Positions 1 to 40,320 of a stretch of DNA of 64,000 nucleotides are shown one piece after another. How positions within the stretch are numbered: position 1 is the stretch's first letter; each line of letters starts with the position of its first letter. Source of the stretch: Moniliella sp. 'wahieum'. Lineage: Eukaryota. The notes under the pieces were generated by a model. It was not told where the DNA came from. It made no database searches and was given only the letters and a program-made list of their open reading frames with translations. Location of the stretch: assembly GCA_003971905.1 (NCBI GenBank), contig RSEE01000104.1:1-64000 (forward strand), given 5' to 3'. Position numbers and translations under genes: made by a program.

Positions 1-2137
1 TAGCGAGCTACCCGAAGGGGAGAGAGTTATGCCGAGGCGATAGCGAGCTACCCGAAGGGGAGAGAGTTATGCCGAGGCGATAGCGAGCTACCCGAAGGGG
101 AGAGAGTTATGCCGAGGCGATAGCGAGCTACACCGAAGGGGAGAGAGTTATGCCGAGGCGATAGCGAGCTACCCGAAGGGGAGAGAGTTATGCCGAGGCG
201 ATAGCGAGCTACCGAAGGGGAGAGAGTTAGCCGAGGCGATAGCGAGCTACCCGAAGGGGAGAGAGTTATGCCGAGGCGATAGCGAGCTACCCGAAGGGGA
301 GAGAGTTATGCCGAGGCGATAGCGAGCTACCCGAAGGGGATAGTTATGCCGAGGGATAGCGAGCTACCCGAAGGGGAGAGAGTTATGCCGAGGCGATAGC
401 GAGCTACCCGAAGGGGAGAGAGTTATGCCGAGGCGATAGCGAGCTACCCGAAGGGGAGAGAGTTATGCCGAGGCGATAGCGAGCTACCCGAAGGGGAGAG
501 ATTATGCCGAGGCGATAGCGAGCTACCGAAGGGGAGAGTTTATGCCGAGGCGATAGCGAGCTACCCGAAGGGGAGAGAGTTATGCCGAGGCGATAGCGAG
601 CTACCCGAAGGGGAGAGAGTTATGCCGAGGCGATAGCGAGCTACCCGAAGGGGAGAGAGTTATGCCGAGGCGATAGCGAGCTACCCGAAGGGGAGAGAGT
701 TATGCGAGGGATAGCGAGCTACCGAAGGGAGAGAGTTATGCCGAGGCGATAGCGAGCTACCCGAAGGGAGAGAGTTATGCCGAGGCGATAGCGAGCTACC
801 CGAAGGGGAGAGAGTTATGCCGAGGCGATAGCGAGCTACCCGAAGGGGAGAGAGTTATGCCGAGGCGATAGCGAGCTACCCGAAGGGGAGAGAGTTATGC
901 CGAGGCGATAGCGAGCTACCCGAAGGGGAGAGAGTTATGCCGAGGCGATAGCGAGCTACCCGAAGGGGAAGAGTTATGCCGAGGCGATAGCGAGCTACCC
1001 GAAGGGGAGAGAGTTATGCCGAGGCGATAGCGAGCTACCCGAAGGGGAGAGAGTTATGCCGAGGCGATAGCGAGCTACCCGAAGGGGAGAGAGTTATGCC
1101 GAGGCGATAGCGAGCTACCCGAAGGGGAGAGAGTTATGCCGAGGCGATAGCGAGCTACCCGAAGGGGAGAGAGTTATGCCGAGGCGATAGCGAGCTACCC
1201 GAAGGGGAGAGAGTTATGCCGAGGCGATAGCGAGCTACCCGAAGGGGAGAGAGTTATGCCGAGGCGATAGCGAGCTACCCGAAGGGGAGAGAGTTATGCC
1301 GAGGCGATAGCGAGCTACCCGAAGGGGAGAGAGTTATGCCGAGGCGATAGCGAGCTACCCGAAGGGGAGAGAGTTATGCCGAGGCGATAGCGAGCTACCC
1401 GAAGGGGAGAGAGTTATGCCGAGGCGATAGCGAGCTACCCGAAGGGGAGAGAGTTATGCCGAGGCGATAGCGAGCTACCCGAAGGGGAGAGAGTTATGCC
1501 GAGGCGATAGCGAGCTACCCGAAGGGGAGAGAGTTATGCCGAGGCGATAGCGAGCTACCGCGAAGGGGAGAGAGTTATGCCGAGGCGATAGCGAGCTACC
1601 CGAAGGGAGAGAGTTATGCCGAGGCGATAGCGAGCTACCCGAAGGGAGAGAGTTATGCCGAGGCGATAGCGAGCTACCGAAGGGGAGAGAGTTATGCCGA
1701 GGCGATAGCGAGCTACCCGAAGGGGAGAGAGTTATGCCGAGGCGATAGCGAGCTACCCGAAGGGGAGAGAGTTATGCGAGGCGATAGCGAGCTACCCGAA
1801 GGGGAGAGAGTTATGCGAGGCGATAGCGAGCTACCCGAAGGGGAGAGAGTTATGCCGAGGCGATAGCGAGCTACCCGAAGAGAGTTATGCCGAGGCGATA
1901 GCGAGCTACCCGAAGGGGAGAGAGTTATGCCGAGGCGATAGCGAGCTACCCGAAGGGAGAGAGTTATGCCGAGGCGATAGCGAGCTACCCGAAGGGAGAG
2001 AGTTATGCCGAGGCGATAGCGAGCTACCGAAGGGGAGAGAGTTATGCCGAGGCGATAGCGAGCTACCCGAAGGGGAGAGAGTTATGCCGAGGCGATAGCG
2101 AGCTACCGAAGGGGAGAGGTTATGCCGAGGCGATAGC
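1..2137. repeat. 40-bp tandem array (TAGCGAGCTACCCGAAGGGGAGAGAGTTATGCCGAGGCGA)n, about 53 copies; satellite or possible non-canonical terminal repeat
   Basis: The unit can be read directly and runs from base 1 with no spacers. Variants are mostly 1-nt indels, and about 971-1555 is a perfect run. Confidence 0.97.
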
Positions 2138-2393: not shown

Positions 2394-2794
2394 ACAAATA
2401 GAATCCGTACCAACTGCAGGCTGGAAATAAATAGAATTCGACACTAGTGTCAAATTGCATTTGTGGCCGTCATATCATCGATCAGCCGTACCAAATGTAT
2501 CACTGAACATACGTCTAGTCCCAAAGTCATGCTGTTGTTCGTTTGAACACCGTTGATACTTGTTCAGGTACGCCTGTTGATCATCTATGCAAGTGCATGC
2601 CATGAAGCGCTTGACAAAGTGGGACAGTCGTTGTTAGGTTGGCCTCAAAGACCCACGACGGTCGTCGTCATTGTACACTTCAACATCTATGACAGGTGCT
2701 CGGATGCTTCTGTGTGCATGTACTAGAGTGCATGGAGAGGTAGGCTGGGATGGTATGCATTGCTATGTTCCTATACATGTTGATGTTCAAGACG

Positions 2795-3080
2795 GGGAGC
2801 AGAGGCGTGGAGATGGGGAGCACAGGCTTGGGGATGGCGAGCACAGGCTTGGTAACGAGGAGCAGGCTTGGGGATGGAGAGCGTGGGTGGAGGGCGCAGG
2901 CTTGGAGATGATGGGCAGAGGTTGGTGGCGAGTACAAGCTTGGGGATGACGAGCACAGGCTTGATGGGGAGTGCAGGCTTGGAGATGATGAGCACAGGCT
3001 TGGTGGCGAGCACACGCTTGGGGAGAGAGCGCAGGCTTGGACATGATGAGCACAAGGTTATGGCGAGCGCAAGCTTGGAC
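2795..3080. repeat. Degenerate ~21-bp minisatellite (gagcacaggcttggggatg-like)
   Basis: The caggcttgg core recurs about every 18-21 bp and explains the repetitive ORFs in several frames. Confidence 0.85.
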
Positions 3081-4309
3081 GCAACAGACAGAGCACGACG
3101 ATGTACTTGCACATGGCCTACTCGAGCTTGAGCATGGCCCGGCGAGCGTTGGGATGGGGGCAATGACGAGGGAGAGTGGAAGGATGAGAGGCAGAACACT
3201 GGTGCAAGAGCGGGTCAGAATGAGGCAGGGTGGCATGGGATGGAAGGAGATGGGATGGGGGATGCGTACCGATGCGCTGAACGACGTTGCACATGGCCCA
3301 GACGGCGTTCGGGATGAGCATCCCAAGCAGGGTGACAGCAGGGGCAGCCAAGCGAGTGCACATGGGCCGGCAGAGCGTCGGACGGGGACGGCATGGCAAG
3401 CTGCACGGTCAGCTGGGACGGGTGCGAGGCAAGTGGGTACATGGGCGAGACGAGCTTCCAGATGGCCAAGCCAAGCGTCCAGACGGCCACTCAAGCGCGG
3501 CAGCGGTGGCAGCAGCCGAGACGGTGACCTTGGACGGCCAGGACGCCAGACCGAGGCCAGCAAGCATGCACAACGCCATGCACCATCCCTGCACCATTCC
3601 CTGCTTCCGCTTGGCCGGCCCGACGGTGGCGATGGCCGAATGAATGGTGATGGTGGCCGAGCCAATGGCGGTGGTGGCCGCTCAGTGGTGGGGATGGCCT
3701 GGGCGTGCGTGGGAGGTGGGAGCGCGGCGCTGGGGCGGGTGGGGAGGCAGGGGACGTGGGAAAGAGCGCCAGGGTGACGGGCAGTACCTGCAGAGACCCA
3801 GAAGCTGGACAGAAGACACAGAGGCGAGAGGGTCAGTAGAGGGCCGGTGTGGAAGATGAGGCGCGGGAGGCACCGAATGGGGGAAAGGAGGCTCAGAACG
3901 AGGGGCTAAACGAGGCAACAGACCTTGGGGGGCGGGCAAAGCCAGCCGGGTTGGGGGGGGGCGTGGTAAGAAACCAACCAGATCCGTCGCCTGGCCCGTG
4001 CATTCATCCGCCGCGGGCTGAAAATATTAACATTTGCAATTGCACCGATGCACGCGCAGCCTGCGCGGTCAGATTGGCTCGGCCGCCACCAAATCGACCA
4101 ACCGCCACCACCACCAACGCATCCACCGCCACACGCCCGTTCTCCATCGTGGTGCATCGTCTTGCGCCCCACGCGTGCGCGTCTGAAAGAGGACTACCTG
4201 GGGCACGCTACGCCCACCCTCGTGCTCTGACTCGTCCCAAATTGGTGGGGCACCGACGCTGTTTGTTGGGACCGTGCGCCGTCTGGACCGCACCTGAGGT
4301 AATTGGATG

Positions 4310-5900
4310 TGGTGTAACCTCAATCCTGGACCGAATCAAAAGCGCATCATCATTCTTGAAAGCCTTGATTCTGGGCTACGCTACACCGTTGACAGATCTC
4401 TGATTCGTCCAGAATTGGTTGAACCGCCGGCAGCATCAACATCGACCATCCGCTGTTTGGACCTAACCTCTGATGTTCACATGTGTGTGACCCCAATCCG
4501 GGCCCAATCTGCGTGCCCCCGACCTCCCATGGAAGCCCTGCTTCTGATGCAAGATGTGCATGTATGCAATCTATTGTTTGATGAGGATTGGTGCTGTGCC
4601 GGCGCCGTCAACATAGACCTTCATCCGAATCAAGCTAACATCAGATGTTGGGGCGTGTTCTGACCTCAATGCTGGACCAATCCTGGAGCGCCTTACCTCC
4701 CCTGGAAGCCCTGCTTGTAGTGCACGATGGGGCGCGACGATCTCTGGCATCCGACGACAACTGGTGGAGCGGCGGCGCCATCAACACCCACTGCCCGTGT
4801 TTGGACCTGCTGTGCACCATCGCTTCAGCTGGTGGACAGATGCAGATGGTAGTCGATGTAGGCCTGCCCTGGTGGAAGGCGAGGGAGTAGCTGCAGCGGG
4901 AGGCTTGGATGAGGCGTGCACCTGAGCGGGAGCGGCTGGGATCGATGCATGCTGGGATGAGATGGTGGCGTATGCCGGCGGGACCAAAATGGCGATATCT
5001 CAGCCGTCTCTCATCCGTTCTGGCTCACATTTGGCATGCTACCAACAGTGAGCAAGCACTGTTGGAGGCATGCATCAGATCCTCCATCTGCCTCACGATC
5101 AGGGGCAACGCGCATAGAGGTGTGCTAGCGCCAAATGAAGCACGGATATGGACGATTGCTCACCACGAGACGGCCATGCATGGTGACATGGGTGGTGGTG
5201 GTGGTGAAGTGGTGGTGGCGGTGGCGGCGCTGGATAATGGTTTGCGCACACCAACATCAGATGCGCTGCGCCGGCAGCGCGCACAGCGGTGGACAGCGGT
5301 CGGATGGCCACAGGCCAGAGTTGGGACTGGACACGGCGCACAGCGTGGCAGGGCCCGCTTGGCGGATTGACCCAGAATGCAAGGTAAAGACAGGCCTGAC
5401 CACTTGTGACAAGCGGCTCTTCGGCCCAATGCAGGACCAGTCACCAAGCGGACCGCAACGGCCCCAGCCGCCCCGCCGAGGACCTGTCACCAAGCGGACC
5501 CAGCCACGGCCCAAGTCGGCACGCCAGGACCCATCACCGAGCGCACCTAGCCACGGTCCGGGCCGGCACGCCCCCACCTGCCCCGACCAGAAACAACCAA
5601 TTACCTTGGTCGCGAATGGCCCTATCGTCGTTGCCGATCCCCCACGGAGCGCTGGCCCAGGCGCCACACAGGCCAGAGTCGGGACCGGGCACGGCGCAAG
5701 CAGCGTGGCAGCGCCCGCTACGTTTCCGCAAGGAACGCCATCAAAGAATGTCAGAGCTCACCAAACGTCAGACCCCGCATTTTGCCCTCCTCACATGTCA
5801 CATTCCAGGCGTGACAGCGTGAATACCGCATTCCAGGACTAAGCCCCACCCGAAATGTCAGAGATCACCAAACGTCAGGCACCACATTTTGGTCCCCATC
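4310..5900. repeat. Patchwork of diverged direct repeats (subtelomeric or TE-derived)
   Basis: ggaagccctgctt at ~4531 and ~4705; tgtttggacct at ~4454 and ~4797; cacaggccagagtYgggacYggRcacggcgca at ~5309 and ~5667; aatgtcagagMtcaccaaacgtcag at ~5747 and ~5854. Confidence 0.65.
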
Positions 5901-6008
5901 ACACTGTGGTGGCTGACTTTCGTGGGGTGTCCCAGTTTGGGCTAAAATACCTGTCTCAGTACTAATTGAGCCGCGTTTTGACAGGACTCATCACACGCCA
6001 ATATAAGA

Positions 6009-7207
6009 CTAGGTCCATGGGCTCGGCTTCGGGCGACGAGGGCCGAAACCAATGATTGCCGCCCGATCCCGGGGAGGTTGCGGTACCATGAGCGCCCAAC
6101 GATTGCGATTGGTCGATGTCAATGGCCGCTGTGCGCAGTTGTTCGAAACTGATCCGTCCAAAGTGAGCCGACTCGCCGCGGGAGGCGATTGCGTCACGCA
6201 CCCGCGGCTTCAAGCCGTACAGAAAGTGATAGTAGCGGTCCTCATCCGACGCGTTGGGGTTCCAGCGACGCAGCAGAACCGTGAACGTAGCGGAATAGTC
6301 CGCTGCAGATCCCGTCTGCCGAAGACGACCAAACTCCTCAAACGCCTTCAGCGCCGGGTTGCGCTCGCCCCACGCTCCAGGAAAGCTGCGCGAAACGCAG
6401 GCCAAGACCGGAGGGCGGGTGTGGTGCGCGCCTCCAGGGGAAGGGCCACCTCCGAACCGAACTGCTCGACCCAAGTGAGGGCCTCCCCCTAGCAGGCCCA
6501 TGAAGCGGTCGATCCATGCCGCCGCGCCCAGATGCGTGAGGGCGACGCGCGCGTAAATCTCGAAGGAGGTGACGACGTGCTGGGCCTGGACCGGTCCCGA
6601 GAGTTGGGATTCGCACCAGACGACGGGCGGAAAACGAACGGGCTCGAACATCTTCGGCTCTTCCGACACCTTGTTCGGGATGGCGGTCAGATCACCATAA
6701 GGCCCAGGGGCGGGAGCGGGGGCGGGGCCCGAGGACACCACGCCAGTTTAGCCTCCGTACCGAGGCGGCCAACCGGGCCTCTTCCGCGGCGAGCGCCGCC
6801 TCCTCCCGCCGCTGACGGAGGCGGTGCTCACGGCGCTTCGCCTCTTGCTCATCCTCGAAAGCGCCGCTGGTCCTTCTGGGCTGCAAGGTAGGCCTGGTGT
6901 TCCCGGGCCTTCGTCAACAGAACTGGCGCATTCTGCGGGCCTCATCGACCCGGCGCTGAGCGGCCTCGAGGTCCAGGCCGGACAGGTCGGAGGCAGGCAA
7001 TGTATACCCCGGGGGCGCGGGCGCAACAGACGGAGCTGCATGGGGGGGTTCAGAGGGGCCAGCCGGGTGGAACCACTCCGGGCCATCGTCGTCGAACGGA
7101 GCGTCAGAGGGGGGGTCGGACGGGGGTCGGATCGGGCCGCGCCGCGCGATGGGGTGCGGCGCGCTAGGGTTACTGGGGTCATGGGGGTTGTCGTGGATCG
7201 AGGACAT
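6009..7207 (-). pseudogene. Retrotransposon Gag (Retrotrans_gag-like capsid domain), frameshifted and truncated
   Basis: ORFs 6914-7207, 6692-6886 and 5962-6741 join by frameshifts. The LxQtGSvxdY..F and F..GLK..vr motifs and PMDL are typical of fungal Ty3/gypsy Gag. Confidence 0.85.
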
Positions 7208-22406: not shown

Positions 22407-23689
22407 GAGGAGCAAGCGTAAATGCAAGTGCAATTGCACGCACTCGAGAGCAAGACACCCCAAACCTGGCCGCACCACCACCTTCGCTCTCCTCATCGCT
22501 ATCCCTATCGCTATCCCCATCGCTGTCCTCATCACTATCGCGGACGTTCCCCCGTCCAGGTTCAGGGTCAGGGTCGGGGTCTGGTGCAGGGTCGGGATCA
22601 GGGTCAGGGTCGGGGTCAGGTGCAGGTGCAGGTGCGGGGTCGGGGTAGGCGGTGGAGCGGTCCAAGTGGAGTCCTGCGTGCCCCCCCCCCCCCCCCCTCC
22701 ACAACCACAAGCACATCCGCAAGCACAAGCACAACCACAACCATAGTCACGGCCCTCACCACGGCCGTAAGCACAGGTACAGGCACGTGCGTCGCCGCCG
22801 CGGTGCCGGTGGAGCTCGGCTCTGTGGGCACAGGCACAGCAAGGCGGGAAGGTGAGGTGCCCGTAGCGGTGGTACGGGCGGGGCTTTGTTTGATGCGGCA
22901 GGCGGTGCAGGTGCAGATGGTGCTTACTACGGCGCAGAGGTGTGAGAGATGTGGAATGAACACCCAGTGGCAGAATTGCAATTGGGGAATGGGGGAATGG
23001 GGGAATGGGTCAGAAGGAGAAGGAGAAGGATGTGGGGGGGGGGGGGGTACGGGGCAGGTGGTAGAGCGAGTGTAAGTAGGATGTAAGTACTCGTACGTTG
23101 GATACGACTACCGCGACGTGTTCTGATAACCCAGAATTGACAACCGACAAGGGAAGAACGACCAGAACGACAAGAACGCAAGCGTCGACTGATGGAAGGA
23201 TGAAAGGGACACGACCCCTGCAGCAACCCATACCCCATATCCCTCCCGCGCCCGATCCTAACCGGTAACGGTAACCAGTAAGCCCTCTTCCCTCGCCGTA
23301 TCCAAGCGAAGAGGGATCATCTCTTTCGTTGGGTTTCTTTCCCCCCATGGATGGCGTAAAGATCACGGCTGATCAACGTTCAATGGTCCACACCTACTAC
23401 TATATTGCGCGAGATTACCACTATCGTACCACCACTTCCACTTTCACCACCGTCCACGGTCCACCGCCCATGGTCCACCGCCATCTGGCACCCTATCCTT
23501 GGGGCTTGGGGTTTGCGTCAGCGCCCCTTGGGCAATCATTAATCTGGCATCACAACCAAACACCGAACCGAACAAACCAAACCAAAAACGAAAGCAAAGC
23601 AAGCAGCTGTAGCCCACCGCAAGACTGAGCTCAGTCGACAGGACTATGCGAGGGACTCGGCACGACTGGCCAATGCCAAGCACGGAAAA

Positions 23690-23790
23690 CCAAGGCAAAG
23701 CAAGGCAAAGCAAGGCAAAGCAAGGCAAACCACGGCAAGGAAAAACAAGGCAAAGCAAAACAAGGCAGGCAAACCAAGGCAAGGCAAAAG
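23690..23790. repeat. (AAGGC/AAAGC)n microsatellite
   Basis: Read directly. Confidence 0.85.
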
Positions 23791-24512
23791 ACTGAGAACT
23801 GGCACCGTACGGTACGGTACTGTACTAGGGGTAGGGAACTGGCGGCAAATTAAGAGGAGGTATACCGCTCGTTTGGTTCGGGGCAAAGGACAATGGGTAA
23901 AGGGCAAAGGGCAAAGGGTAATGGGTAAAAGGGTAAAGGGTAAAGGGGAAAAGGGTTAAAAGCGCGGGGAGGAAATGGGGTAGGGAAAGGGGGTAGGGGA
24001 AAGGGCGCGGAGAGAAGGTACGCGTTACGAGCAAGAAAAGTAGCCAAAACGCCAAGAACAGAAAAGAAAAAGAAAGAAAAGAAAAGAGTCCCAAAGGGGG
24101 GGGGGGGGGGGGGCGGGGCGGGGGAAGGGTGTGTGGGCGCACCCCAAACACGCAGACAGTGCACCACACCACACACGACCGTACGTCCCGCCACTTCCAC
24201 TTCCACTTCCACTTCCACCACCGCGCCGCGCCGCACGCCAACCAATAACATAGCCCGGCACAAAAGCCAACACGGCAAGAAAGGAAAGAAAAGAAGGAAA
24301 GAAAAGGCACATTAAGGTTAGGGTAGTATGGGTAGTCAAGGTACCGGGGTAGTAAAACTGGGTAGTAGGATAAGGGTAGGATAAGGGTAGTAGCAGGGGG
24401 GGGGGGGGGGGGGGGCGGTGAAACGGATTCCAAACAAAAAGGAGAGGAGAGGAGGGCCAACGAGAGGAACCGAGGAAAAGAACCGAGCAACCGAGGGGAA
24501 GAGGAGAAAAAG

Positions 24513-24752
24513 AAAAGCAAAGCAAAGCAAAGCAAAGCAAAGCAAAGCAAAGCAAGCAAAGCAAAGCAAAGCAAAGCAAGCAAAGCAAGCAAAGCAAGCA
24601 AAGCAAAGCAAAGCAAAGCAAGCAAAGCAAAGCAAGCAAAGCAAAGCAAAGCAAAGCAAAGCAAAGCAAAGCAAAGCAAGCAAGCAAAGCAAAGCAAAGC
24701 AGCAAAGCAAAGCAAGCAAGCAAAGCAAAGCAAAGCAAAGCAAGCAAGCAAA
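24513..24752. repeat. (AAAGC/AAGC)n microsatellite, about 240 bp
   Basis: Read directly. It accounts for the LLCFA-repeat ORFs. Confidence 0.95.
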
Positions 24753-27917: not shown

Positions 27918-28747
27918 CGAAACGAGTGTGGCGGCGCAGGCAAACGAGGGTGGGACGAAGCGCAGCCGCCGGCCAGCGAGCGAGACGAGAGGGGGGGGGG
28001 GGGGCGGAGGGAGAGGAGAGGAGAGGGAGAAAGAAAGAAAGACAGGAAGCACACACCACACACAGACGAGCGTCTGCTTCCCTGCGGAGTGCTCCCCAGC
28101 CCAGCCATAGCCAGCCCACCCGCGTCGAACGTCTCTGCGCTCCCTCTGGGCCGGCTACTACTTACTCCCTACTATGGGTTGCGCCCAAGCGAGACTATAC
28201 TCCCAGCTCCGCTACGCCCCCCGCACGGGACCAGTGTCGGACGCCACTGGGGGGCGGGGCCAGTGTGGCGCCACGCCCCCCGCCGCGCCGCCGATCACCG
28301 CCGCCGCGGGCCCCTGTGCGCTGCTGTCGCGCCGCCCCGCCGCGGCCCACTGCGCCACCCGCCTCCCGCGCCAGGAACACACCCAACCCTACTGCCCTGC
28401 GCCCAGCATGTGATCATGGCACAGGCATGTCACATGTCACATGCCGCATGTCACATGTCACACCCTCGCATTGTCACATGTCACACTCCCCCGCCGCACG
28501 CCACTGGTGGCGGCTGGCTCTCTCTCTCTCGCGCGGCGGTTTCTCCTGCTGGACGCTCCCTCGCTCCATCGCACAGTCCATCCCATCCCATCTCCGCTGA
28601 GGCACGGACGACCGTCCGCTCTCCCTAATAATAGAGCGCACCCTCACATTCAATTCACTTCCACCGCCAACGCAATTATCAAGTCTACGTGTCTGAGCGA
28701 CAACAGTGAATCAAGAACCCAGTTTCGTGGTTCCCCCCCGTTTCCAT

Positions 28748-29387
28748 TGTCCTGGTGTCGCTAGTCGCCCTGTGCCCGTTGATCTGACGTCTCTGCGGTG
28801 CGCTTTTTGTGGCAACCCCGAGCGACAGTAGTCGCCCCATGCCAGTGTTTACCTTACTTACCAATTTCTAGCTTGTCCGTGCGGCAGCCGTCTCTGCTGT
28901 TTTCCCTTCAATGTTCTTCCTTCTTCCTCTGTTCAATGCCTTGTTTCCCTTTTCGTCCCTGTCTGGTAGCAATCGTTCGTGGCTTTCCCCCGGTCCATTG
29001 GCGTCTCCCCCCCTACTCTATCTAGTACAGACAACTCCTCCTCTTAGTTGCTCCTCCAGCCCCGTCGTCAGCTCTCAGCTGCCGCCCCAGTCTCAGTCGG
29101 CTGTCCCAGCCCAACCTCGGTCCAGCAGCGTACGTCCTCCGCTGCCTCCACCCCTCCCTCAGCCCAAATGCTTCAGACACACTACTGCCGCCCAAGCCAG
29201 TGCTACGCAGCCTTTCCACACCTGCAGCCGCCTCTGCTATACGCCGAGAGGCCTCTCCTTGTCCCTCGCTCTCGGAACCACCAACCAGCACAAGCGCGTA
29301 ACTACCGTGAGTCGACCTTAGGACCTCCAAGGGATTGTACCCCTTAACCCCCCAGGGCGGGCCCCCTGGCAGCGCCCGTCCGTGACA
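28748..29387 (-). mobile_element. Solo-LTR-like relic (left edge uncertain, 28748-28808)
   Basis: The right end is ...cgtgaca. It is homologous to 33435-34142 (gtgctacgcagcctt, ccgcctctgctatacg, tgagtcgaccttaggacct) and shares 17 bp (gtagcaatcgttcgtgg) with the LTR at 7303-7319. Confidence 0.65.
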
Positions 29388-32300
29388 GCACCCAGGTGGA
29401 GGAGCACGCGCCATACTAAGACAGCAGCCAGTCGTCCATCCCGGTCTCCCCTACGTGATCCTCTGGGTGTCCCACGCGAGCCAAGCTTCCCTGCTACGGA
29501 CTGCAGAACCGTGTTCTTGCCACGGGGAATAGGATGCAACGTGAACCTACGTTGCATGCCAGAGTGCTGGTCTCTGGGACAGCGTTGACGATGGCAAAGG
29601 GGGCTCAAGGGAACGGTGGACTGGTGGACAAGGCGGGCGGGGGGAGGAAAGATGGCCCTGCAGCACCTCAACGTTCACCAATGACCAGTGGTCCCATAAA
29701 ATCCACTGGTCAGACTGCACTATAGGCCGACATTCTGGCTCGCTAGCGACCCAAAGGAAGGAAGAGAGCAAGCCGTCGCGCCCTTTCATTCAGCCCCTCG
29801 ATTCCGTCCTGACGCACCCAATGCCACTACCAAGTCAATCATCAGATTTCATTGCAGTTGGTATCCGTACAGTGAAGTGGCAGGACAACCTTGCGCGTGG
29901 AGCTCACTGTCCCTCGCAGCGAAACGCAAGTGATGGGGGGCGAAACCCAACCAGGCCAATCCCTACCGTAGCGATCACAACACTCCGTCTCCGTCCCCCC
30001 CGGTTACAGGCGGCGATTTCTGCGCTGATTATTGTTCGTCAGTGGTGGCAGGGGTGGCGGGGGAGCGTTTGGTCAAGCAGCTTGGTCAACTGTGCGCTGG
30101 CAAGAACGATGAGGTCCATGGTGCTCCACCAGGTGGGTCGTGCATTTTGATCAACGTCCCTTCAGTCCCTACTTCCGACTAAGTGCTCAGGCCTCTCTCA
30201 GACCTAAGTACTATGCATATGAGTTGCGTTGCTTTTTCTCCCTCGGGTTTCCGTGTTGCGCAGTATTAGCCGACTAGGTGCTTGTTGTTCTTCAGACGGC
30301 GTTGGTGGGTGACTCAGACCCGCACCGCACCACCATCACCAATGCGATTGCACCTATCACCCTCGCGGACCGACAGGACTGCAGGACTGCAGGTCCAATC
30401 AGTCCGAGTTCCACCTCTTCCTTCATCCAGTGAGCAAAAAAGGGGGTGATCACCCCCCGCCCCCTCCTCATCTCCATCCCATCCTTTCATTCCGCGTCTT
30501 TCGTCTGTCCACGATGCGCCCCAACCCCACTCCCAACCCCCAAACCCTACTACGCCTAGCATCCGGAACCTGGGCTGGGTCGACAAACATAGTTCCGTCT
30601 CCTTTTTCCCCCAGAAGAGGGAAGGACCTTCCAACGCGCTTCTCACCGGCCCACGGAATAGCTCCACCAGGTCTACCGCCTTGACCAGGTTCTTGAGCGA
30701 CAGACGCTATGGCGACCACCAAGGCGACAGCCACACATGCGTCCGGTCTGTTTGATTTTCATACCAATCTACGCACACGAGATTTCAACCCGACGTGTTG
30801 GGCCCCGACGACCGGTCGAGTCACCGGTGCTTCACATGGCCATGATCCCCTTATATGGGTCCTCCAGAGGCGACAATGGCATAACCTCCTGCTCCTCCGA
30901 CTGTTGATACGTGCATGTGCAAGCTACCAATATAAGGTCAGTCGAGGCTTATCCGTCTATGGAACTGTGGACAACGTCTCATATGGACTGCCGTCGCAGA
31001 GAGATCCAGTGCTGAGACGTGGACATCCCAACGGCTATACTATTGCGGTTGTACGCCAAGGTGCTCCCACTACGACCTATATATCCTATGATCCAGTTGT
31101 ATAGCCACCACACTCACCCCCACAGTCGCGGACGTGCAACAGGCACGCGATGACCTTCATTTTTGGATCGATAACAGTCTCCTTTGGAGCCAGATCATGC
31201 ATCATGCCGCCCGGGTGGTTGGTGCGGACCCGTGTGTCCAGGACTATACGGCACGCATTGCAGGAGCGAACTCGTACCGACGGAACGGATTTAAAGATTT
31301 TGCCCTGTTTTGTCCAAACTTACCAACCCCCTAGGTACCTTCACGCTGTAGACGCGGTTATATTAAACCACGACAGCCTTTTCGGCCATGGGATGACTAC
31401 AACGTACCTGCCCGAGATCTGCCTGTCAAGCTTCGAGCGATTTCGTGCACGTTGGATTGGGATCTGCCGGAACACAGTACAAATCTGGTCAAGACCGCCC
31501 GTCGATCCGTACATGTGAATCTGTGACGCCACACTGGTGTAGTGGCGCCGGTAGCCCAAGTCCGGAACCTTCTGGTTTGTTCCGTGCAAAATATTCCTTC
31601 CTGGCCGGCAGGAATATTCTCTAGCCTCTGTAGCTCATGCAGTGCAATGCAATACATTACCAACTGCCTGTCCTCTGGTCTTCTACAGAATCACTTAGTC
31701 ATACAATGCTGACATACCCACTCTCGTGCTTCCTCACATCTTCGCCTTTCTCCGCCTGCGATACGGCGACGTCACCACCCCAAAGGACAAGATCTCTACG
31801 CTCTCGTCGCTGGTTGACTTGGCCGTTGGGTCGCGGACAGGAACGCAGTGTGGTTAGCAGTTTCTCCACCGCGTGAGTGCACCGCGCCAACTTGGGTTTT
31901 CACTCGCTCTATGGATATAAGATACGCTGATCCTCCATGTCGCGCTGACCGCTGCGGTGCAGAAGAGCGGGATGAGCATCTGGTAGGGTGAGAAAACGTC
32001 GTTGATGCTACGCGCGGATCATGCACCTGTTACACTCACGCGGGCTATTACACAAATATTATTACTGGCATCGTCCCTTGTGCGTACGACCTTGTTCCAC
32101 ATCTCCCCTTGACCCGTGTTTGTGTGTCTCGTTGTCTCGTCGCACGTTATTGGCCGTGCCGGTCCGATTGCTTTTCCTCTGGGATATCCAAGGCGCACCA
32201 TTCCATGCAGCCTAAAGAATGATCGAATGAATTCCCTCTACATCCAACCCAACCTTACCTTGAGACACACATCGTTTTTTCCCCCTCAGAGGGTTCATCA

Positions 32301-33434
32301 CCCGGGGGACGTGGTCTACGCCGTGGGGGGTCTCTCTCGCAACGGGCGATTTACCCCGCCACTGCAACATCTCTACTCCGGTCTCAAAGCTCACGTGTCC
32401 GGCAAACCTGCTGATGACCCCTCCTCCTCTCTCTCGCGGTTAAAATGCCAAGGGACCACACCAGCATTGAACCAGCAACATTCCGTCTCACGTTACTCTT
32501 TACGTTGCTCTTCAGTCGGTATCTTCGTCTTGGATCGGTGGAACTGGTGGTTAGCCCTTCCTTGGTCTTCATCAGCACCTCGTATATGGTACTGTCTCAT
32601 TCCTATCCCATCCGCTATTGCGGGCACTGCGAGCTCTACGCGCTGTGGTCTTCTCCGTCGCGTGAATAATACTGTTAGGAGTGCACGGGGAGTACTTCGC
32701 CCGCCACCCTCCCTGCGCAAGATGATTCGGACCCGCGCCCGTCCGTCTTCAGTGATAAGAATGCATTTCCTTCACTCCATCCATGCAGCAGATGGAGATG
32801 GGGAAAAGGATAATGATCATATTCATCGAGGGAAAAGGCGGCGGGGGATATGTATACCTCGCATCAGAAGAAGAGACCATGCCAACCGAGTCACATAATG
32901 GAGACAGAAAGGGGAGCCTAGACAAAGGAGAAACAGAGTCTAAGCGAATAGGAGGATCCGGCCAACCTGGTGCAGTGTGTATGATCAGGTGGGTCTGACC
33001 CCGACAATTCTAGTCATGCTTCTACAGTCCTTCCTTGCAGACGGCCGGGTCGTGCAAGCCAATGGCATTGGCACACTGCTTCTTTTTCTATTTCCATACT
33101 GCTGTACCCCATCACCTCCCCTGTTTGTTCAACCGCGCAACCACTTCTATTGTGATGCTTTTCCCTACAACTTGCTAAGTGCGTGACAATTCGCGACGGC
33201 CGGGCTCGAGAATTTGCTCGCCACATGGAGCCAAGGCATCTATCTGTGCCGCACGGGTGACATACCCCTCCTCCGCCTTATTACGGATGTTATCGACAAA
33301 ACGTTTCTCGAACCCCTTCTTCACTCTGTGATAACCCCTCCCAATCGTGCCCATTTCATTGAACCTGTCACGGGCGGAGACTGGCGGGCAAGCCCGGGGT
33401 CGCCTTTCGCCCAGGTGAATTGGTAGCCACACCG

Positions 33435-34142
33435 TGTGATGGCCACCCAATTGTCAGTTTCTTCCTTTGCGACTATAGTCACCACGTGCCCGTTTCTCTT
33501 ACCCTTCTAGGTTGCCCATGCGGCAACCTAACCCCTTGTTTTTCCTTGTCCCTGTTCTACTAGTCTATTGCATTGTTTCTCTATTAGTCCCTGTTTGATA
33601 GCAAAAATGGTCATGATTATCCCCGCGGTCCATTCGCGTTTCCCCACCCTACTCACCAATTTGAAGAACCCACTGGTACAGGCAACTTTCCCTCAGTTCG
33701 ATGCTCTCCTCCTCTCACCTCGTCCTCCAGCCTCTGTCCTCGGCTCGACATCCTCAGTTAACCCAGTTCGCGGTACCATGTCGACGCCCAGCTCAGATCA
33801 GCCGCGTGCGGTCCCACTTCTAGCCTTGCCACCACTAGTCCTAGTCCAGATCCAGCTCGGGCCGTGTTGGCCCTCCACCGCTGCCCTTCTCGTTTCTACG
33901 TCACGAAGGATTTAGACGCGTTACTACTGCTCAAGCATGTGCTACGCAGCCTTGCCACACCCGATTCCGCCTCTGCTATACGTCGAGCGGCATCGTCTTG
34001 TCCCTAGCCTCGCTCAGGCCCACCAATTAGCCCAAACGCGGAAACTACCATGAGTCGACCTTAGGACCTTCAAGTGATCGTACCTTTTAACCCCCCCCCC
34101 CCCCCCCCCCAGGTGGGCCCCCGGTGGTCCTCGCTCGTCACA
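33435..34142 (-). mobile_element. Solo-LTR-like relic, diverged relative of 28748-29387
   Basis: TGTGATG...CGTCACA ends (6/7 inverted) and collinear blocks of similarity to the 28.7-29.4 kb copy. No TSD seen. Confidence 0.65.
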
Positions 34143-37100
34143 GACCCTCTACCGTTTGATACAAGCCTTACCGAGTCCATGAACAGTCGAGCCCTATCTC
34201 CCTGTCAGTTCCCCACACTTAACTGCTTCCTTCAACTTCCTCTTTCGTGATTTCTTTCAAGATCTAATAGCCACTGTTCGGCCCCACTGGCATTGCCCTT
34301 CCTGGATTCTCTCGCAGGTCACAGCCCCGGGGCGTCTCTTATTCTCTTCTTATTACCTCCAATGTTACTCGCGCCACCCGACACATTTCTCTCTTCCATA
34401 ACGATGTAGTCTCTTCAAATTCCTCGCGAAGGAGGCGCGGGACATGGGTGGGGGTGAATTATCGTTGATGACTTCACCTTGTACGTTTTCTTCATCCCTC
34501 TTTCTTCCCAAGGCAAAGCCACCTTGTCCCTTTGTGCCTTGAATCCCCGTGAGCAATGTCAGCACCTGATCGGCACCTCCAGGTGGTCCGATTTGACAAT
34601 GCTCCCACGTTAATGTTCGAAAGATGAAGTTTCACAACGAAAAAGGCATTGTCACCGAAACCAACAATCCTGGTGAAAGTGCATCCAATTGATATATCGT
34701 AGAAAGGGAGATTTCGCTTCATCATGGATGGTGAGTCGTACTCCACTTGCACCTATAATTGTCGCCTCGATCCGGAGGAATGGCTGGCAACATGCCCTTC
34801 ATGCTCATAATTGGAGGCAACAACCGCTTTGTATGTCGGCCTCGCTACTACCACAGAATCTGAGCATTGAACGTCGTATTCGACTAAGAAGCTTCTGCGA
34901 CTGACTCGTCCAGAAGACTGGTGCGAGCTCGGAAGGAATGAAAACTGACTCACGTGACTCAGGGTCCGCGCGGCCCTAGGACGGATGTCAACATGGTACG
35001 CTGCCATGGTTTTCCTCCTTCTCTTGCGATGCATCATTGCGCCCTCGTATATCTTCACCGTTTTCACAGCAAGCGTGATGGCGGCAACGTTCGGCTCTCA
35101 GGTCATTCGGGCCGTGCTCATTAAGGATAACACATGCGGAAAGCCCCTGTAGTCATGAACGTTTGCGTTTCACCCTGTATATAATGGCTCCTCTGGCTTG
35201 GTATACTAAGGCTGTTGGAAATCCCCTTTCAAGTGTTGGACCACTGCAGCAGCTGTGGTGTACGCTGCCATGCATGATTTTTCACTTGGTGTTTTTGGAT
35301 GGTGGACTACTACTAAGACTCAGAACCAAGGGGTTAGGATCGCGGCTACATCCGAATCCTTGGCCATGGGTGTGACTGCCGCCAAAGCTCTTGCCCAAAA
35401 GCTTAGCGAGTCGGCGTGAGATTCGTCCAATCGATGTGTGGCATCAGAAGATGCCGGAACGCATTCGTTGGTGAACTTGAGATTCGCCACGTCCCTGGGT
35501 GAATCAGCTCCGGGAATGGTTCTTCAAACCTGTTAGTATCCTCAAGTTCTTTTTATATCAACAATTCTATTTGGTTCCATTTCTTCGACAGAGTGAACCA
35601 AATCCATCCATCCTGTCCTGTTGTCATACGGGAGGCGCTGCTTCAAAAAATTCTTCCTATACGATGTGAAGGATGGGAGCACAGAGAACAGCGGCAAAAA
35701 ATGAAGAGCGTGATGTCACATCAATGACTGGACAATGGACTCACATTCTTTCCCCAAATCTCGCGACTGCGTCAACAATTGGTAAATAGGCAGGGGAATG
35801 TGTACGTGGCCATGGAATGGAAGCAGCTGTTAAAGGTGCGGTTTGGCATACATGCTATCTATCCTCTGTCAAGAAAGCGCCATTTGCGTTACCTCGTGAC
35901 ATGAATCCGAGGTCTTCTTCATCCTAAAAAATTACAAAAAATTACGAGACGTGCGGATAGAAAACACACAGAATGTTAGGTAAGATGGATGTAACAAATA
36001 TCCCCTACCAGTTATGTGGTCTATGTGGAAGTTAGCAGTAACTGTTCCTAAAGTGGCGTACACATCCGCTTCATTGGAGGTACGCAGACATCAATAATAC
36101 TATTGAACATTCTTGGAGAATGTTTCGGTTCCGTATGTACTCTTTGTCACAACTAAACGTGAACATACATATGAGATTAGCCCCTGCATTATAAGGTCTG
36201 CTGCACAACAGCACCAAGCCAGTAATTCTCCGTCCAATTGCATCGCTCGTTTGTATCTTAAACGTTTATATTTCCCGGTCTGTACATTTCCTCAGCGTCC
36301 TTTGTTGGTTAACAAAAGTTAATGTAACTGTTGCTGTACTTTTCGGGCTCATAGCCCGTAAATCTTGTTTGCATGGGCTTCTACAGTCTTAGAAAGTGAA
36401 AAAAATGCAAAACCAAGGAACCCAAAAACTGAGTACTTGATTGGATGGTGTTTGAAATTGCATGCGATACTTTTGTATTTCCAGGCTTCTAAGCCCTGGG
36501 TACCGTTGCCAGAGTGTTCCTGCTGCTTTCCCCGGAAACGAGCTGTTTCTCAGTCCCGACCCTGTACAGTATTGTTTGTTATCCTGTCGGTAAGCAATAG
36601 AATAGGATTTCCTCGCCAATGATTCATTCGCTCCTTCTGCAACAAATCTGCCAGTGAAAATGCAACTCATCCTCCTTTGAGTTGTCTCCTCTACTCTTGG
36701 CCATTTTCCCATCCCATTAGGTGCCGGATTTAAGTTTCAATCTCGGCTTCATAGATATCTCTGCTCCCCGCTTTGAGAAGAAACCAAGTCTGGACATTGT
36801 TTTTGTCCTGAGCTATCTTTTCAACCGCTTCCCCGCGTCCGAACTGATTCCGATCCAGGACGTTACGTCGGCCCAGGCCGGTACCAGCGTAGCTCCCGAG
36901 AACAAATTCGGCCGGTGTATGTTGTGCGCTCAGGCGTCTTTCCTTGCCCCGATAGAGCCCCATTCGCATTCACCAACCCTGCGCCAGCATAAACTTCAGT
37001 GTACCAGTCGACCATTCTTGCGTAAGAGATTGTCATTGTAGAATACGCTGGTGAGAGCACACATTCACAAGACTCCTTCCACATCCATATGTTGTACTGA

Positions 37101-37941
37101 TGAATGGCATACTATACTAGTGACATGCAACCAGTGTCACCTCAGCAGCAGTGTTCTTATTTTCATCTCCGTCTCCAATTAATCTGGCATTAGAGCTGTA
37201 CAATAATACCGTGGTGTGTTTGTTTGCCTCTGGCCCTAGGCAAATGTGTGGTCTTAGTGTAAAGGACCGTGACGCGGATATGGCATGTTCGATCATAGTA
37301 TGAACATGCACGAGTGGGCACGACAGCGAGAGTACATGTGACTGGGGGTAAGGAACTCCGCCCCTCAGCCCTTAAGGGTCACTGCGGGCTGGCTCGCCTG
37401 AACAACACGTCCACTCCGCTTCTCCTCAACGAAGCATGCTTCATTATCTGTGGGCAACCAAGATCGAGTCCCTTCGTACGACTGAAGAGAGATCTAAGGG
37501 TGAGCTTTGAGTCCGTACTAAGTTGATTCTACCTCAGATATTTGGTTTTTGGTCTTAACGCAAGTGGGCTGTACGCTAAGCCACTGGATTTGGGCCGCTG
37601 TTTTCTGATCAAGACGTGAGGGTTTCGTTCGTTTGATTATTCTCCCCTCATGCCGTTTATGTTCCTGTTGAGGGCGCAGGACTTGTCCATTAGTTTGGCA
37701 TTTTCGGCCTTGGTTGTTCCAAATTTTATCGGAACCTTTCCCTGCTTGATCTGTGCTTCTTTGAGAGCCATTCTCATTCATTCCTTCTTCTTACGATTGT
37801 ATGTTGCGTCCTTAGGGTTGCTGTCTGTATAGCCTTTCTTCTACGTTCTTCGCTAGCAACCCATTTGCAACAACATCTCCTACGAATCCATCCTTGACCC
37901 ATCAGAGAAAACCCTCATTTTGCTCTCTCGCTCATGGGCAG

Positions 37942-38095
37942 TGTCACTAACCTGCGTGAGCGCGACCACCTCTTGGTCCTCCCGAATCCCTCCGTTCAGT
38001 CAACCTTTCCCGTCGATCTCCCTCCACCCTTCGGTCCAATCTGGACAGATCCCGCGTGATCCTACACAAGTGTTGAGTTTTTTTTTTTCGTGACA
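37942..38095. mobile_element. Possible short solo LTR
   Basis: Bounded by TGTCAC...GTGACA inverted ends. No TSD. Confidence 0.3.
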
Positions 38096-40320
38096 AGGCC
38101 TGTCCGACCCTGGGTTTTGTTTGCAACAACCTTCCGGCGAACCTTTCTACGTTCTGCACCTTCAAACTGTTAGTCTGCTCGTTCCAGCACATACGCAACC
38201 TTGGTCACTCAAGCCTCCCCTTAATTGAGAGGCTTCACATCTCCAGCTCCGTTCGAATCAGCTACTAGCGTCCACACTCGATAAACCGTGATCCGACAAG
38301 GGAATGCAGCCCTCTAAACCGCAGGTTGGGCTGCAGTTCGTGACCTACCCGGACAATAGAGGAGAGCGTCATCATGGTTGTGCTGGCTCATACCACTACA
38401 TATATGCGGGAGCAACGAAGTTGGCATGACCCGTTTGTATGCGCCAATGGTAGCAAGGCCTCAATCTACACCAAGAGAGGCTGCGAGATAAAGGTCCTCT
38501 TCATGAGCCAGTGGGCACCATGACGCTTTGGGGCTATCCTAAACCTCCTGCCCTCCCCCCCCCCCCCCCCCACCTGTCCACTCCGATGCCTACTAGGTTT
38601 TGGAAGGGAGTCAGCACTTCTGAGTTTTTGAGAACAACCGTCAGGGCAGTGTCTTTGATTGATGGGGATGTGCTGACATAGGGAAGAGTGGCACCGGTAG
38701 CCCAAGCCTGGTCCCCTTCGGTGCATCCCTTCTGTTACTTCTTCATAGAGGGTAACAATACTCTCTAACCTGTGTAATAGCCATGCTATGTGCAAATGCA
38801 ATCACCTAATGCCATCCAGAATTCTGTTGATCCTCGAATTTTACCAGTCCTGAGGGCTTTGGTCAAGAGATATACTCACGGGTTCTCCCTTCCGTGATAA
38901 GCAGGCTTTTGAATAGGATGGACAGCGCGAATGCCGTTCATCCTGCCATAGCGCCATTACTGGTAGATGGCACCGTTTCACAGATTGATGGCGGGGGTTG
39001 TTAGATGCTCTGTTTACGGACTTGGAATCAAGCTGGTCATCAGAGCTTGTACATGCTCATTGCAAAGGCGTGCACAGCGGGGTCTCGCAGTGTGGCTAGT
39101 GGAGAGGGTCTGGCTGCAAGCCAGAATAACGTTTGTTCCTCTATACGGATGGCTATCCTCTTGTTGTCCTTGGCGATCCTACACAGTTTGTACTTCCATA
39201 TGCTGGTATCCCATCAAAAATATTGCAAGAGGTGGGTTGAAGGATCAAGCAAATATGCTACTACCCGGTGCCAAGCTGTGGAAGATATAGGTGCATAGCT
39301 AATCGAAAACGCTGGTAACAAGGTTGCGGATAGATATGTGAGGACTACGTACAAAATTCAAGGTGAGCAAGGCCCACAAGATTGTGCAAGAAATTTCGAT
39401 TAGCCATGTGTACCATCGCTCAGGATTGTATAGCAGATTCTTCGACGGCCACTCTCGCGCCCAAAGGGAATCTGGAGCGATGCTCAGAACACACCACGCT
39501 AGACGCGGAACCCGGCGCTCGAGTCCAATGAGGTTATATGATGGAGTGCGTCTTATTGGCCGAGGCAACCAATGTTCGTGTGTCGAGGCCCGGGGGATGG
39601 GTAAAAGGCTGTTACTTCTTCAAGGACGGGCTCCCCCCTCAGGGGGTCAGCTTGGGCGGGCGGTGGGAAGAATGTGAGAGGTGGCATGTTGGCGAGGCGA
39701 CGTGCACGGAGCGTTACTGGTCCAAGGGTATATGCGCTGGAGGGGGAACGTGGCAGCACGACGGCGCGTAAGCCAGTTGAAAGGGAAAGACCATGTATAT
39801 TCATTGCTGTCCCGTTTGGACCATGGGCCCGCCGGCGAGGATGGGATACCTGCCCTGGAAGAAGGACGGGGGGATCCAGGAGGCGGCTGGCCCTCTGATC
39901 GCGTTGGCCAACAGCCATGCTTTTTGCCAAGTGATGAACACCTTCATGGGGTGTCGACACTGCGGGGGAGTGGGGGGGGAGGTGACAGAAGGACCGATAC
40001 CCACTATCTTCTCCTACAGCGACTATGGCGGCTGTGGCGAAAGTCCCACGGCGCGCGCGCACGCCACGCGCGACGGCGAATGAGGTCCAAGAAGAATGGG
40101 AGCTGGCCGCCTGCTGGTGGGCAGCGAAGGAGACAGGAGAGCGTCTGGCTGCCTGGCCGCATGGCCACATGGCATCGCGGGGGATGAATGCACACGACTG
40201 CCCGTCCCCAAAGGAGGAGAAAAAGGGACGAGACCACGAAGCGAAGCGAGGGGGCACTGCGGCACCCAGCGCACCGACGCGGGGGGCGCGAGAAGGAGGA
40301 GGGGAAGGGCGGGGGGGCTG

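Follow-up and report, generated by a model that had tools for sequence, protein, structure and literature searches.

Genes for telomere-linked helicases (TLHs) occur in many fungi and are induced in telomere crisis. The closest described counterpart of the locus analysed here is the TLH subtelomere of Magnaporthe oryzae with its helicase-associated repeats (HARs; PMC1635262), and UTASa and UTASb of Ustilago maydis (PMC10532341) and the TLHcr arrays of Fusarium oxysporum (bioRxiv 10.1101/2024.02.27.582403) are also akin to it. In the accessible portions of these three sources, no function is assigned to the TLH domain and the TLH region is not described as mobile. As far as those portions describe them, the TLH systems share with our locus a TLH 3' end that lies telomere-ward, tandem repeats nearby that include a palindrome and motifs resembling the telomere, a sharp inner boundary to unique DNA, stacked units, and dispensability at some ends. 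In the genome studied here, a RecQ-type gene lies near chromosome ends in telomere-ward orientation, with telomere-like tandem repeats in between and a discrete inner boundary. Unlike what is described of those systems, however, a 10-bp site occurs here in two reverse-complement forms, an inverted repeat stands at every capped cassette end, and many short gene-less modules have one 12-nt inner end that is joined at G|G.

The telomerase-negative Microstromatales, which belong to the same subphylum, have long-unit tandem arrays at their ends, for which an origin from subtelomeric repeats has been proposed in the accessible text of PMC13234504. Our locus differs from that account in having TERT and CCCTAA caps and one motif common to dozens of ends; neither loss of the telomerase catalytic subunit nor absence of TTAGGG with end-specific motifs was seen here. 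Coprina and Athena Penelope-like elements (PLEs) and MoTeR, in the available portions of PMC13159263, PMC8557442, PMC4209133 and PMC7367193, resemble the locus in their co-oriented end stacks, fixed inner end, telomere-like tails, and outer end capped by telomerase. The MoTeR-type elements of this genome nevertheless have other ends.

The 40-bp array is an expanded core of a cassette next to the telomere

The window, by which we mean the whole 64-kb stretch of DNA analysed, is the left end of contig C104 in an indel-rich assembly of 69.5 Mb and 223 contigs. A repeat scan of the window found a 40-bp unit in 54 tandem copies at 1-2137, with 97% matches. Each unit is a GA site followed by a segment B, and the array of these 54 units (1-2133, plus strand) starts at contig base 1, its outer cap being unassembled here. 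The GA core was present in 54/54 units, and 34 perfect 40-mers were counted.

Both ends of contigs 1-20 and targeted further ends were fetched for comparison. From the telomere inward, the order of the cassette was (CCCTAA)n, A, [TAGC GA GCTA], B, [TAGC TC GCTA] and C, where A is 24 nt, B is 30 nt, and C is a 139-bp unit with a decayed telomere tract. A is a diverged relative of B, and A/B hybrid units occur. As reverse complements of each other, the GA and TC sites form an 11-bp inverted repeat around B, yet they are also 8/10-identical direct repeats. In the window, the basic cassette core with its 11-bp inverted repeat consists of the last GA site, B, and the TC site at 2095-2144; the TC site itself, TAGC-TC-GCTA, closes the array at 2134-2143; and the C unit is present in two copies (1.9) of 139 bp at 2131-2395, and in both a TC site is joined by a decayed tract resembling CCCTAA (2212-2256 and 2351-2393), all on the plus strand.

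At telomere-capped cassette ends, A was followed by a GA site in 28/28. A single B was present in 24 of these 28; the remaining four had 2, 4, and 24 copies of B and one unclosed array. In all 28 capped ends A and CCCTAA sit outside the array, which is thus subterminal wherever the assembly reaches the end. The TC site preceded C in 129/130 cases. Over 119 fetched stretches, the core of the site was GA in 407, TC in 519, and something else in 2, so a GA loop at this site, the first of the three in the preliminary description, is not required. Buried A leaders were followed by TC in 13/17 cases and A leaders near ends by GA in 29/31; a founder effect may account for the GA that follows every terminal A. 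Arrays were made of blocks of GA or TC units (for example, 93 units with one switch, equalled in 0/2,000 permutations), and several short mixed GA/TC arrays were indistinguishable from permutation. The repeat was found near contig ends, in plus orientation at left ends and minus at right ends; its GA loops lie on the strand that reads CCCTAA and not on that of the 3' overhang. At its opposite end, C104 carried a single-B cassette with the same inner flank as in the window.

The 40-bp unit is therefore the core of this cassette beside the telomere, present in many copies, and not a stand-alone satellite; what had been described as a satellite of unusual design is an expansion inside a larger cassette. 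The 40-bp repeat is very probably a by-product of the conserved cassette, and we are highly confident that arrays were born by slippage or unequal exchange between GA and TC sites and were later amplified in blocks. Because the two sites are also 8/10 direct repeats, the arm that is crossed would set the outcome: left-arm exchange or slippage would give (GA+B)n, the form present in the window, and right-arm events (TC+B)n. Loop inversion may arise by fold-back template switching.

An unbiased sample of both ends of contigs 1-20 (40 ends) had the cassette at 4, a telomere without the cassette at 6, and neither at 30. The cassette is dispensable, because 6 of the 10 recognisable ends have telomeres without it. 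CCCTAA tracts were present at 45 fetched contig ends, with the contig end 10-33 nt away. For these short tracts, real and very short telomeres were indistinguishable from assembler trimming; many of them lie directly on unique DNA, rDNA, or truncated cassettes, and the base behind the last TAA is G or C. TERT was found at two loci, its frames interrupted in the noisy assembly, and was closest to that of smut-related fungi (41-47% to Tilletia, Pseudozyma, and Thecaphora); TLH frames are likewise broken, whether by assembly noise or in reality. A diploid or hybrid assembly is suggested by the duplicate TERT locus and by contig pairs that are nearly identical (C135/C136, C39/C47, and C2/C33), and several contigs of 150-650 kb with telomere features at both ends point to many small chromosomes. 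The idea that the array is the telomere repeat itself was rejected: TERT is present, and CCCTAA caps contigs and lies outside the cassette.

Contigs of other public DNA runs held the cassette and 40-bp cycles consistent with both the GA and TC forms; the cassette was found in two runs and 40-bp cycles of both forms in one, and none spans the whole stretch. No RNA run was listed among the public runs with such pieces, and no look-alikes were found in other stretches of DNA. A single 21-nt pattern, run against contigs from metagenomes and viruses, found no diverged orthologue in which compensatory stem changes could be sought. Elsewhere in the window, purine-rich microsatellites (AAAGC x52, CAAGG, and GGGCAAA) were observed at 24509-24752 and 23678-23960, and a lower-GC block at 28,500-40,000 had pieces in common with other contig ends.

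Palindromes and folding of the unit

Inspection of the window confirmed that three mini-palindromes cover 27 of the 40 nt of the unit and that every loop has C before GA and G behind it, as the preliminary description had it. These are TAGC-GA-GCTA at 1-10, an imperfect palindrome and the GA site proper, with TC as its core in other copies; CCC-GAA-GGG at 11-19, which includes CCGAAGG, a bona fide GNA mini-hairpin motif; and GCC-GA-GGC at 31-38, with a 2-nt spacer that places it outside the mini-hairpin definition (all plus strand). The test for mini-palindromes used a stem of at least 3 and a spacer of 2-3, and its statistic was picked post hoc with the sequence already seen; by this measure, three non-overlapping mini-palindromes occurred in 61/20,000 dinucleotide shuffles, coverage of at least 27 nt in 17, and three C-GA loops in 0. 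Palindrome content above that of shuffled units, another expectation from the earlier work, was thereby upheld. The two 20-nt halves of the unit are weakly alike (15/500 shuffles match), so the three loops are not fully independent.

The unpaired spacer at 20-30 (plus strand) is the site of all four recurrent substitution haplotypes, which lay at positions 20-23 among 501 gap-free units. This confinement of variants lends modest support to a putative constraint on the palindromes, weakened by the fact that the spacer is a GA run. With palindromes enriched, recurrent variants sparing them, and the repeat at chromosome ends, a putative structured or symmetric binding signal is plausible. The earlier suggestion of a structured binding or replication substrate keeps its plausibility in that form, but not as an end shield.

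The DNA mini-hairpins of Hirao have the form GCGNAGC or GCGNNAGC with GNA or GNNA loops of 3-4 nt, and CCGAAGG is named as one of them in the accessible part of a review (PMC13037366). In our unit, a GNA or GNNA loop on a GC/GC or CC/GG stem was found in CCC-GAA-GGG and in GCGATAGC, which spans the unit junction at 37-44 (plus strand) and is listed in a table of that review as a mini-hairpin with a Tm of 71 C. CCGAAGG and GCGATAGC thus each occur once per 40-bp unit. TAGC-GA-GCTA and GCC-GA-GGC both have 2-nt spacers and are not of this kind, and GCGAGC does not occur in the review. Of the three C-GA(A)-G mini-hairpins originally proposed, CCC-GAA-GGG fits the definition and the other two, with their 2-nt loops, do not. 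The junction GCGATAGC, overlooked in the preliminary description, is in competition with both palindrome 1 and palindrome 3. Of 50,000 shuffles, 1,307 reached two true mini-hairpin motifs per unit, and the opposite (overhang) strand of the unit had no mini-hairpin motif. As in the phage G4 origin, to judge from the same accessible text (PMC13037366), a mini-hairpin here overlaps one arm of a longer stem; unlike the mini-hairpins described there, the motifs lie on the strand that is not exposed at the telomere.

The fold of a single unit was not above chance, against what had been predicted, with a z of +0.78 for DNA (162/200 dinucleotide shuffles fold as well) and -0.74 for RNA (49/200 as good); ViennaRNA cannot form 2-nt loops, which makes this a weak test for two of the three palindromes. 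The site-B-site core, taken from the copy on contig C3, had a DNA fold z of -3.06 (0/200 shuffles) and an RNA z of -3.87. Longer stretches with flanks around the core were no better than shuffles (z -0.62). Read as RNA, the telomere-pointing minus strand of the unit (window 1-40) has loops CUCG, UUCG, and CUCG, which we take to be YNMG-type tetraloops, on stems of merely 2-3 bp, and shuffles fold equally well.

Fixed inner ends and the TLH genes

Inward of C, ends are mosaics of co-oriented modules. A fixed inner motif, ..ATAYGTCTAG, ends at least 7 different modules, which have a 12-nt end in common. The window's own unit runs through the array, C, C, and 116 bp to its end at 2518; the 116-bp inner-end module of this mini-element (2396-2518, plus strand) has seven copies with six different neighbours, and the fixed inner end ACATACGTCTAG (2507-2518, plus strand) is joined after the G of an uninterrupted neighbour. 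Genome-wide, the end motif had 84 matches compared to 10 for a reversed control, mostly near contig ends and in one polarity. Within the fetched DNA, its 74 copies had 62 distinct neighbours, rDNA and other modules included. The base before the junction was G in all 31 cases for which the neighbour also had an uninterrupted copy, 27 of them matching exactly and 4 inexactly, and 19 of the 27 exact junctions share that one G alone. G also followed the junction in 47/62 neighbours, compared to a background G fraction of 0.30. A second fixed end, CATGCCCTTG|TAA, was found in 20 copies with 20 neighbours, and the module bearing it occupied 28 places at 88-100% identity, with few exceptions close to a contig end. 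For the TLH subfamily of C204 and C37, a third fixed end was considered and rejected, as two other copies continue past it.

Cassette-bearing modules are co-oriented at many ends, finish inward at fixed motifs, and abut unrelated DNA there, just behind a G of that DNA. A fixed end with variable neighbours is, as far as sequence can tell, the pattern of an enzyme that joins a defined end to variable DNA. Mobile end-capping modules probably have the cassette as their outer end. Two other arrangements of end pieces were observed. A tandem of approximately 676 bp, whose unit ends in CATGCCCTTG|TAA like a short telomere-capping module, was present at C167:1-5000 and also at the ends of C86, C133, and C135. 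Stacks of end pieces of 34-71 nt, from different end families and head to tail, were present on C49 (L050:3077-3223) and approximately 5.3 kb in from the right end of C98.

TLH matches were within approximately 25 kb of a contig end and pointed to the telomere in 16/17 cases; the 64-kb window itself has no TLH gene. OrsD, DEAD, and Helicase_C domains were found in TLH, and between the OrsD and RecQ domains a tyrosine-recombinase fold was predicted on C112 (L175:2412-4388, minus strand), C75, C87, C37, and C204. In an alignment of the query and 30 of 41 relatives, including relatives from other genomes, the recombinase catalytic residues R, K, R, H, and Y were kept in 30, 31, 30, 29, and 29 of 31 rows, respectively. 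The domain model had a pLDDT of 78.7, and the single-sequence fold one of 34.6. The top 25 rows from VIA were all tyrosine recombinases, type IB topoisomerases, or fold relatives, the best match having Z 11.4 and rmsd 3.5 over 154 aligned; the Foldseek ranking agreed with recombinases, none of its rows reaching E <= 0.001. Searching the PDB by sequence returned nothing significant, and a longer-homologue search returned one weak match. As modelled, the TLH domain is a tyrosine-recombinase fold with its catalytic residues intact, and a recombinase fold with R-K-R-H-Y is what marks tyrosine-recombinase transposons. No link between TLH and tyrosine recombinases was found in the literature searched, which takes in few subscription papers, nor in the titles and opening lines of abstracts from a wider Crypton/RecQ search; a prior description is possible.

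The subtelomeric region W of the window (2519-6013) is homologous, in its outer part, to the DNA between the cassette and the TLH 3' end at the left ends of C75 and C112, where telomere, cassette, W (the homologue of window 2570-4365), and TLH 3' end follow one another. The inner part of W has weak homology to TLH upstream arms. Three diverged TLH upstream arms (68-79% alike) stop at a fixed motif 1.5-1.8 kb upstream, and the end families of their motifs differ. The left end of C82 and the right end of C196 have 3.1 kb in common and then part exactly at the fixed motif, and at the right end of C98 the motif is 3.5 kb upstream of TLH. Pfam searches gave one short incidental match for 28 window ORFs and none for six ORFs of the W region. 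A 261-aa frame at 5962-6747 (minus strand), gag-like by eye and without a Pfam match, interrupts W at 6013.

How modules may reach chromosome ends

Our best model, which we hold tentatively and at a little less than even chances, is that a TLH protein would move modules by recombinase cutting and joining, that CCCTAG would seed telomerase, and that the repeats and mini-hairpins would be cis-signals. The tyrosine-recombinase domain of TLH would cut the fixed inner end and join it to N-G|G targets, and the CCCTAG of leader A would be the telomerase seed. The inverted repeat and mini-hairpins would mark the outer end as a protein-binding site, a folded single-strand site, or a replication pause; the mini-hairpins of the cassette would thus be signals rather than an exonuclease shield. 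Tyrosine recombinases join a 3'-phosphotyrosine donor to a 5'-OH acceptor, which would leave the fixed 3' end on the CCCTAA strand, where it is observed. Against the model, the end motif was upstream of only 5/9 TLH copies whose 5' part was fetched, being missing from the DNA fetched at the left ends of C75, C112, and C204 and at the right end of C37, and short end modules occur all over the subtelomeres. Proximity of motif and TLH could be chance, because such modules land throughout these regions. For the fixed end with its variable neighbours and the stacked end pieces of 34-59 nt, template jumping by a reverse transcriptase (RT) fits equally well.

The cassette could instead be a passive helicase-associated repeat of the subtelomere, spread by break-induced replication or gene conversion, its palindromes incidental and merely favouring slippage and loop inversion. 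The array dynamics require nothing further, many capped ends lack the cassette, the unit folds no better than shuffles, and repeats of this sort are described in Magnaporthe, one of them bearing a conserved palindrome (PMC1635262, accessible part). This account leaves unexplained, however, how one 12-nt end came to finish at least 7 modules beside 62 neighbours in one register, mostly with 1 nt shared, and we consider it rather doubtful. Terminal retrotransposition is somewhat less probable still. Here an RT of Penelope-like or CRE/MoTeR type, which pairs over 1-2 nt and jumps between templates, would copy CCCTAA-strand RNAs, with the cassette as structured 5' end and the motif as 3' end, onto the 3' ends of chromosomes. 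It keeps weight because such pairing would give the same polarity; polarity and stacking are as described for endonuclease-free PLEs and MoTeR in the accessible parts of those reports, and the short stacked end pieces, the telomere-like tails (TTG|TAA and the decayed tract), and three CRE/RLE families in the genome speak for it too. TLH, however, sits on the opposite strand. Unlike in Coprina and Athena, as far as their accessible descriptions go, no hammerhead core with paired stem II was found in the fetched ends, nor any Rfam ribozyme, and the 32 RVT_1 loci classified of 71 matches were CRE/RLE, LTR-type, and TERT, with none PLE-like. The RLE loci fetched had neither cassette nor end motif, and their element ends differ, so no autonomous partner was found among them.

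Several related candidates were rejected or noted in passing. A hammerhead at the GTC of the end motif was rejected, with 0 canonical cores in a regex search of the fetched ends for the canonical core only; Rfam gave 0 matches on the window, and 13 end loci gave rRNA and one sub-threshold match. A tRNA-derived SINE was rejected on finding 0 tRNA genes in 8 loci. On C158, C2, and C222 (L117-L119, L125), an RLE retroelement in 28S rDNA, in tandem 4.2-kb units, was observed along with two more CRE/RLE families, of which one is dispersed (at least 19 further copies) and the other subtelomeric.

The preliminary description suggested that the single-stranded repeat could protect an end by folding; in such a model the array would be the chromosome end, or a single strand exposed there, and GA mini-hairpins would block nucleases. 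This contig and about ten others do begin inside an array, the two true mini-hairpin motifs per unit are uncommon among shuffles, and non-canonical telomere arrays are described in a related order (PMC13234504, accessible part). The GA strand is nonetheless the CCCTAA strand, with the motifs on the 5'-end strand alone; A and CCCTAA lie outside at capped ends, in arrays of up to 24 units; TERT is present twice; and the GA core is not conserved. Such a shield is very improbable. We regard as equally remote the ends of a rolling-circle (HUH) transposon, in which a fixed 5' end would be joined to the chromosome 3'-OH and the cassette hairpin and CTAG would form the terminator. A hairpin followed by CTAG does occur on the telomere-pointing strand, and Replitrons are described as inserting after RG in the accessible literature, whose Replitron host lists are without fungi. 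The G before and after the junction is not the A|T or T|T between which Helitrons insert, and the 3 Helitron_like_N matches were weak and interior.

To return to the recombinase model, its fullest form is somewhat less likely than the model itself: TLHs would be the transposases of telomere-capping elements. A tyrosine-recombinase/RecQ fusion would join the fixed inner end to G|G, making a new chromosome end; the outer cassette, with its invertible palindromic site, 11-bp inverted repeat, and mini-hairpins, would be read as folded DNA and seed telomerase; and the 40-bp arrays would be by-products of recombination or rolling amplification. If this is false, what is left is a plain subtelomeric repeat of instructive origin, its array having arisen between reverse-complement copies, two in number, of a single palindrome. 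The genome supplies candidates for the enzyme, for the donor site (the fixed end of 12 nt), and for the outer signal (the cassette), together with a target rule (G|G), and the proposal that TLH regions are mobile telomere-capping elements is thereby made directly testable.
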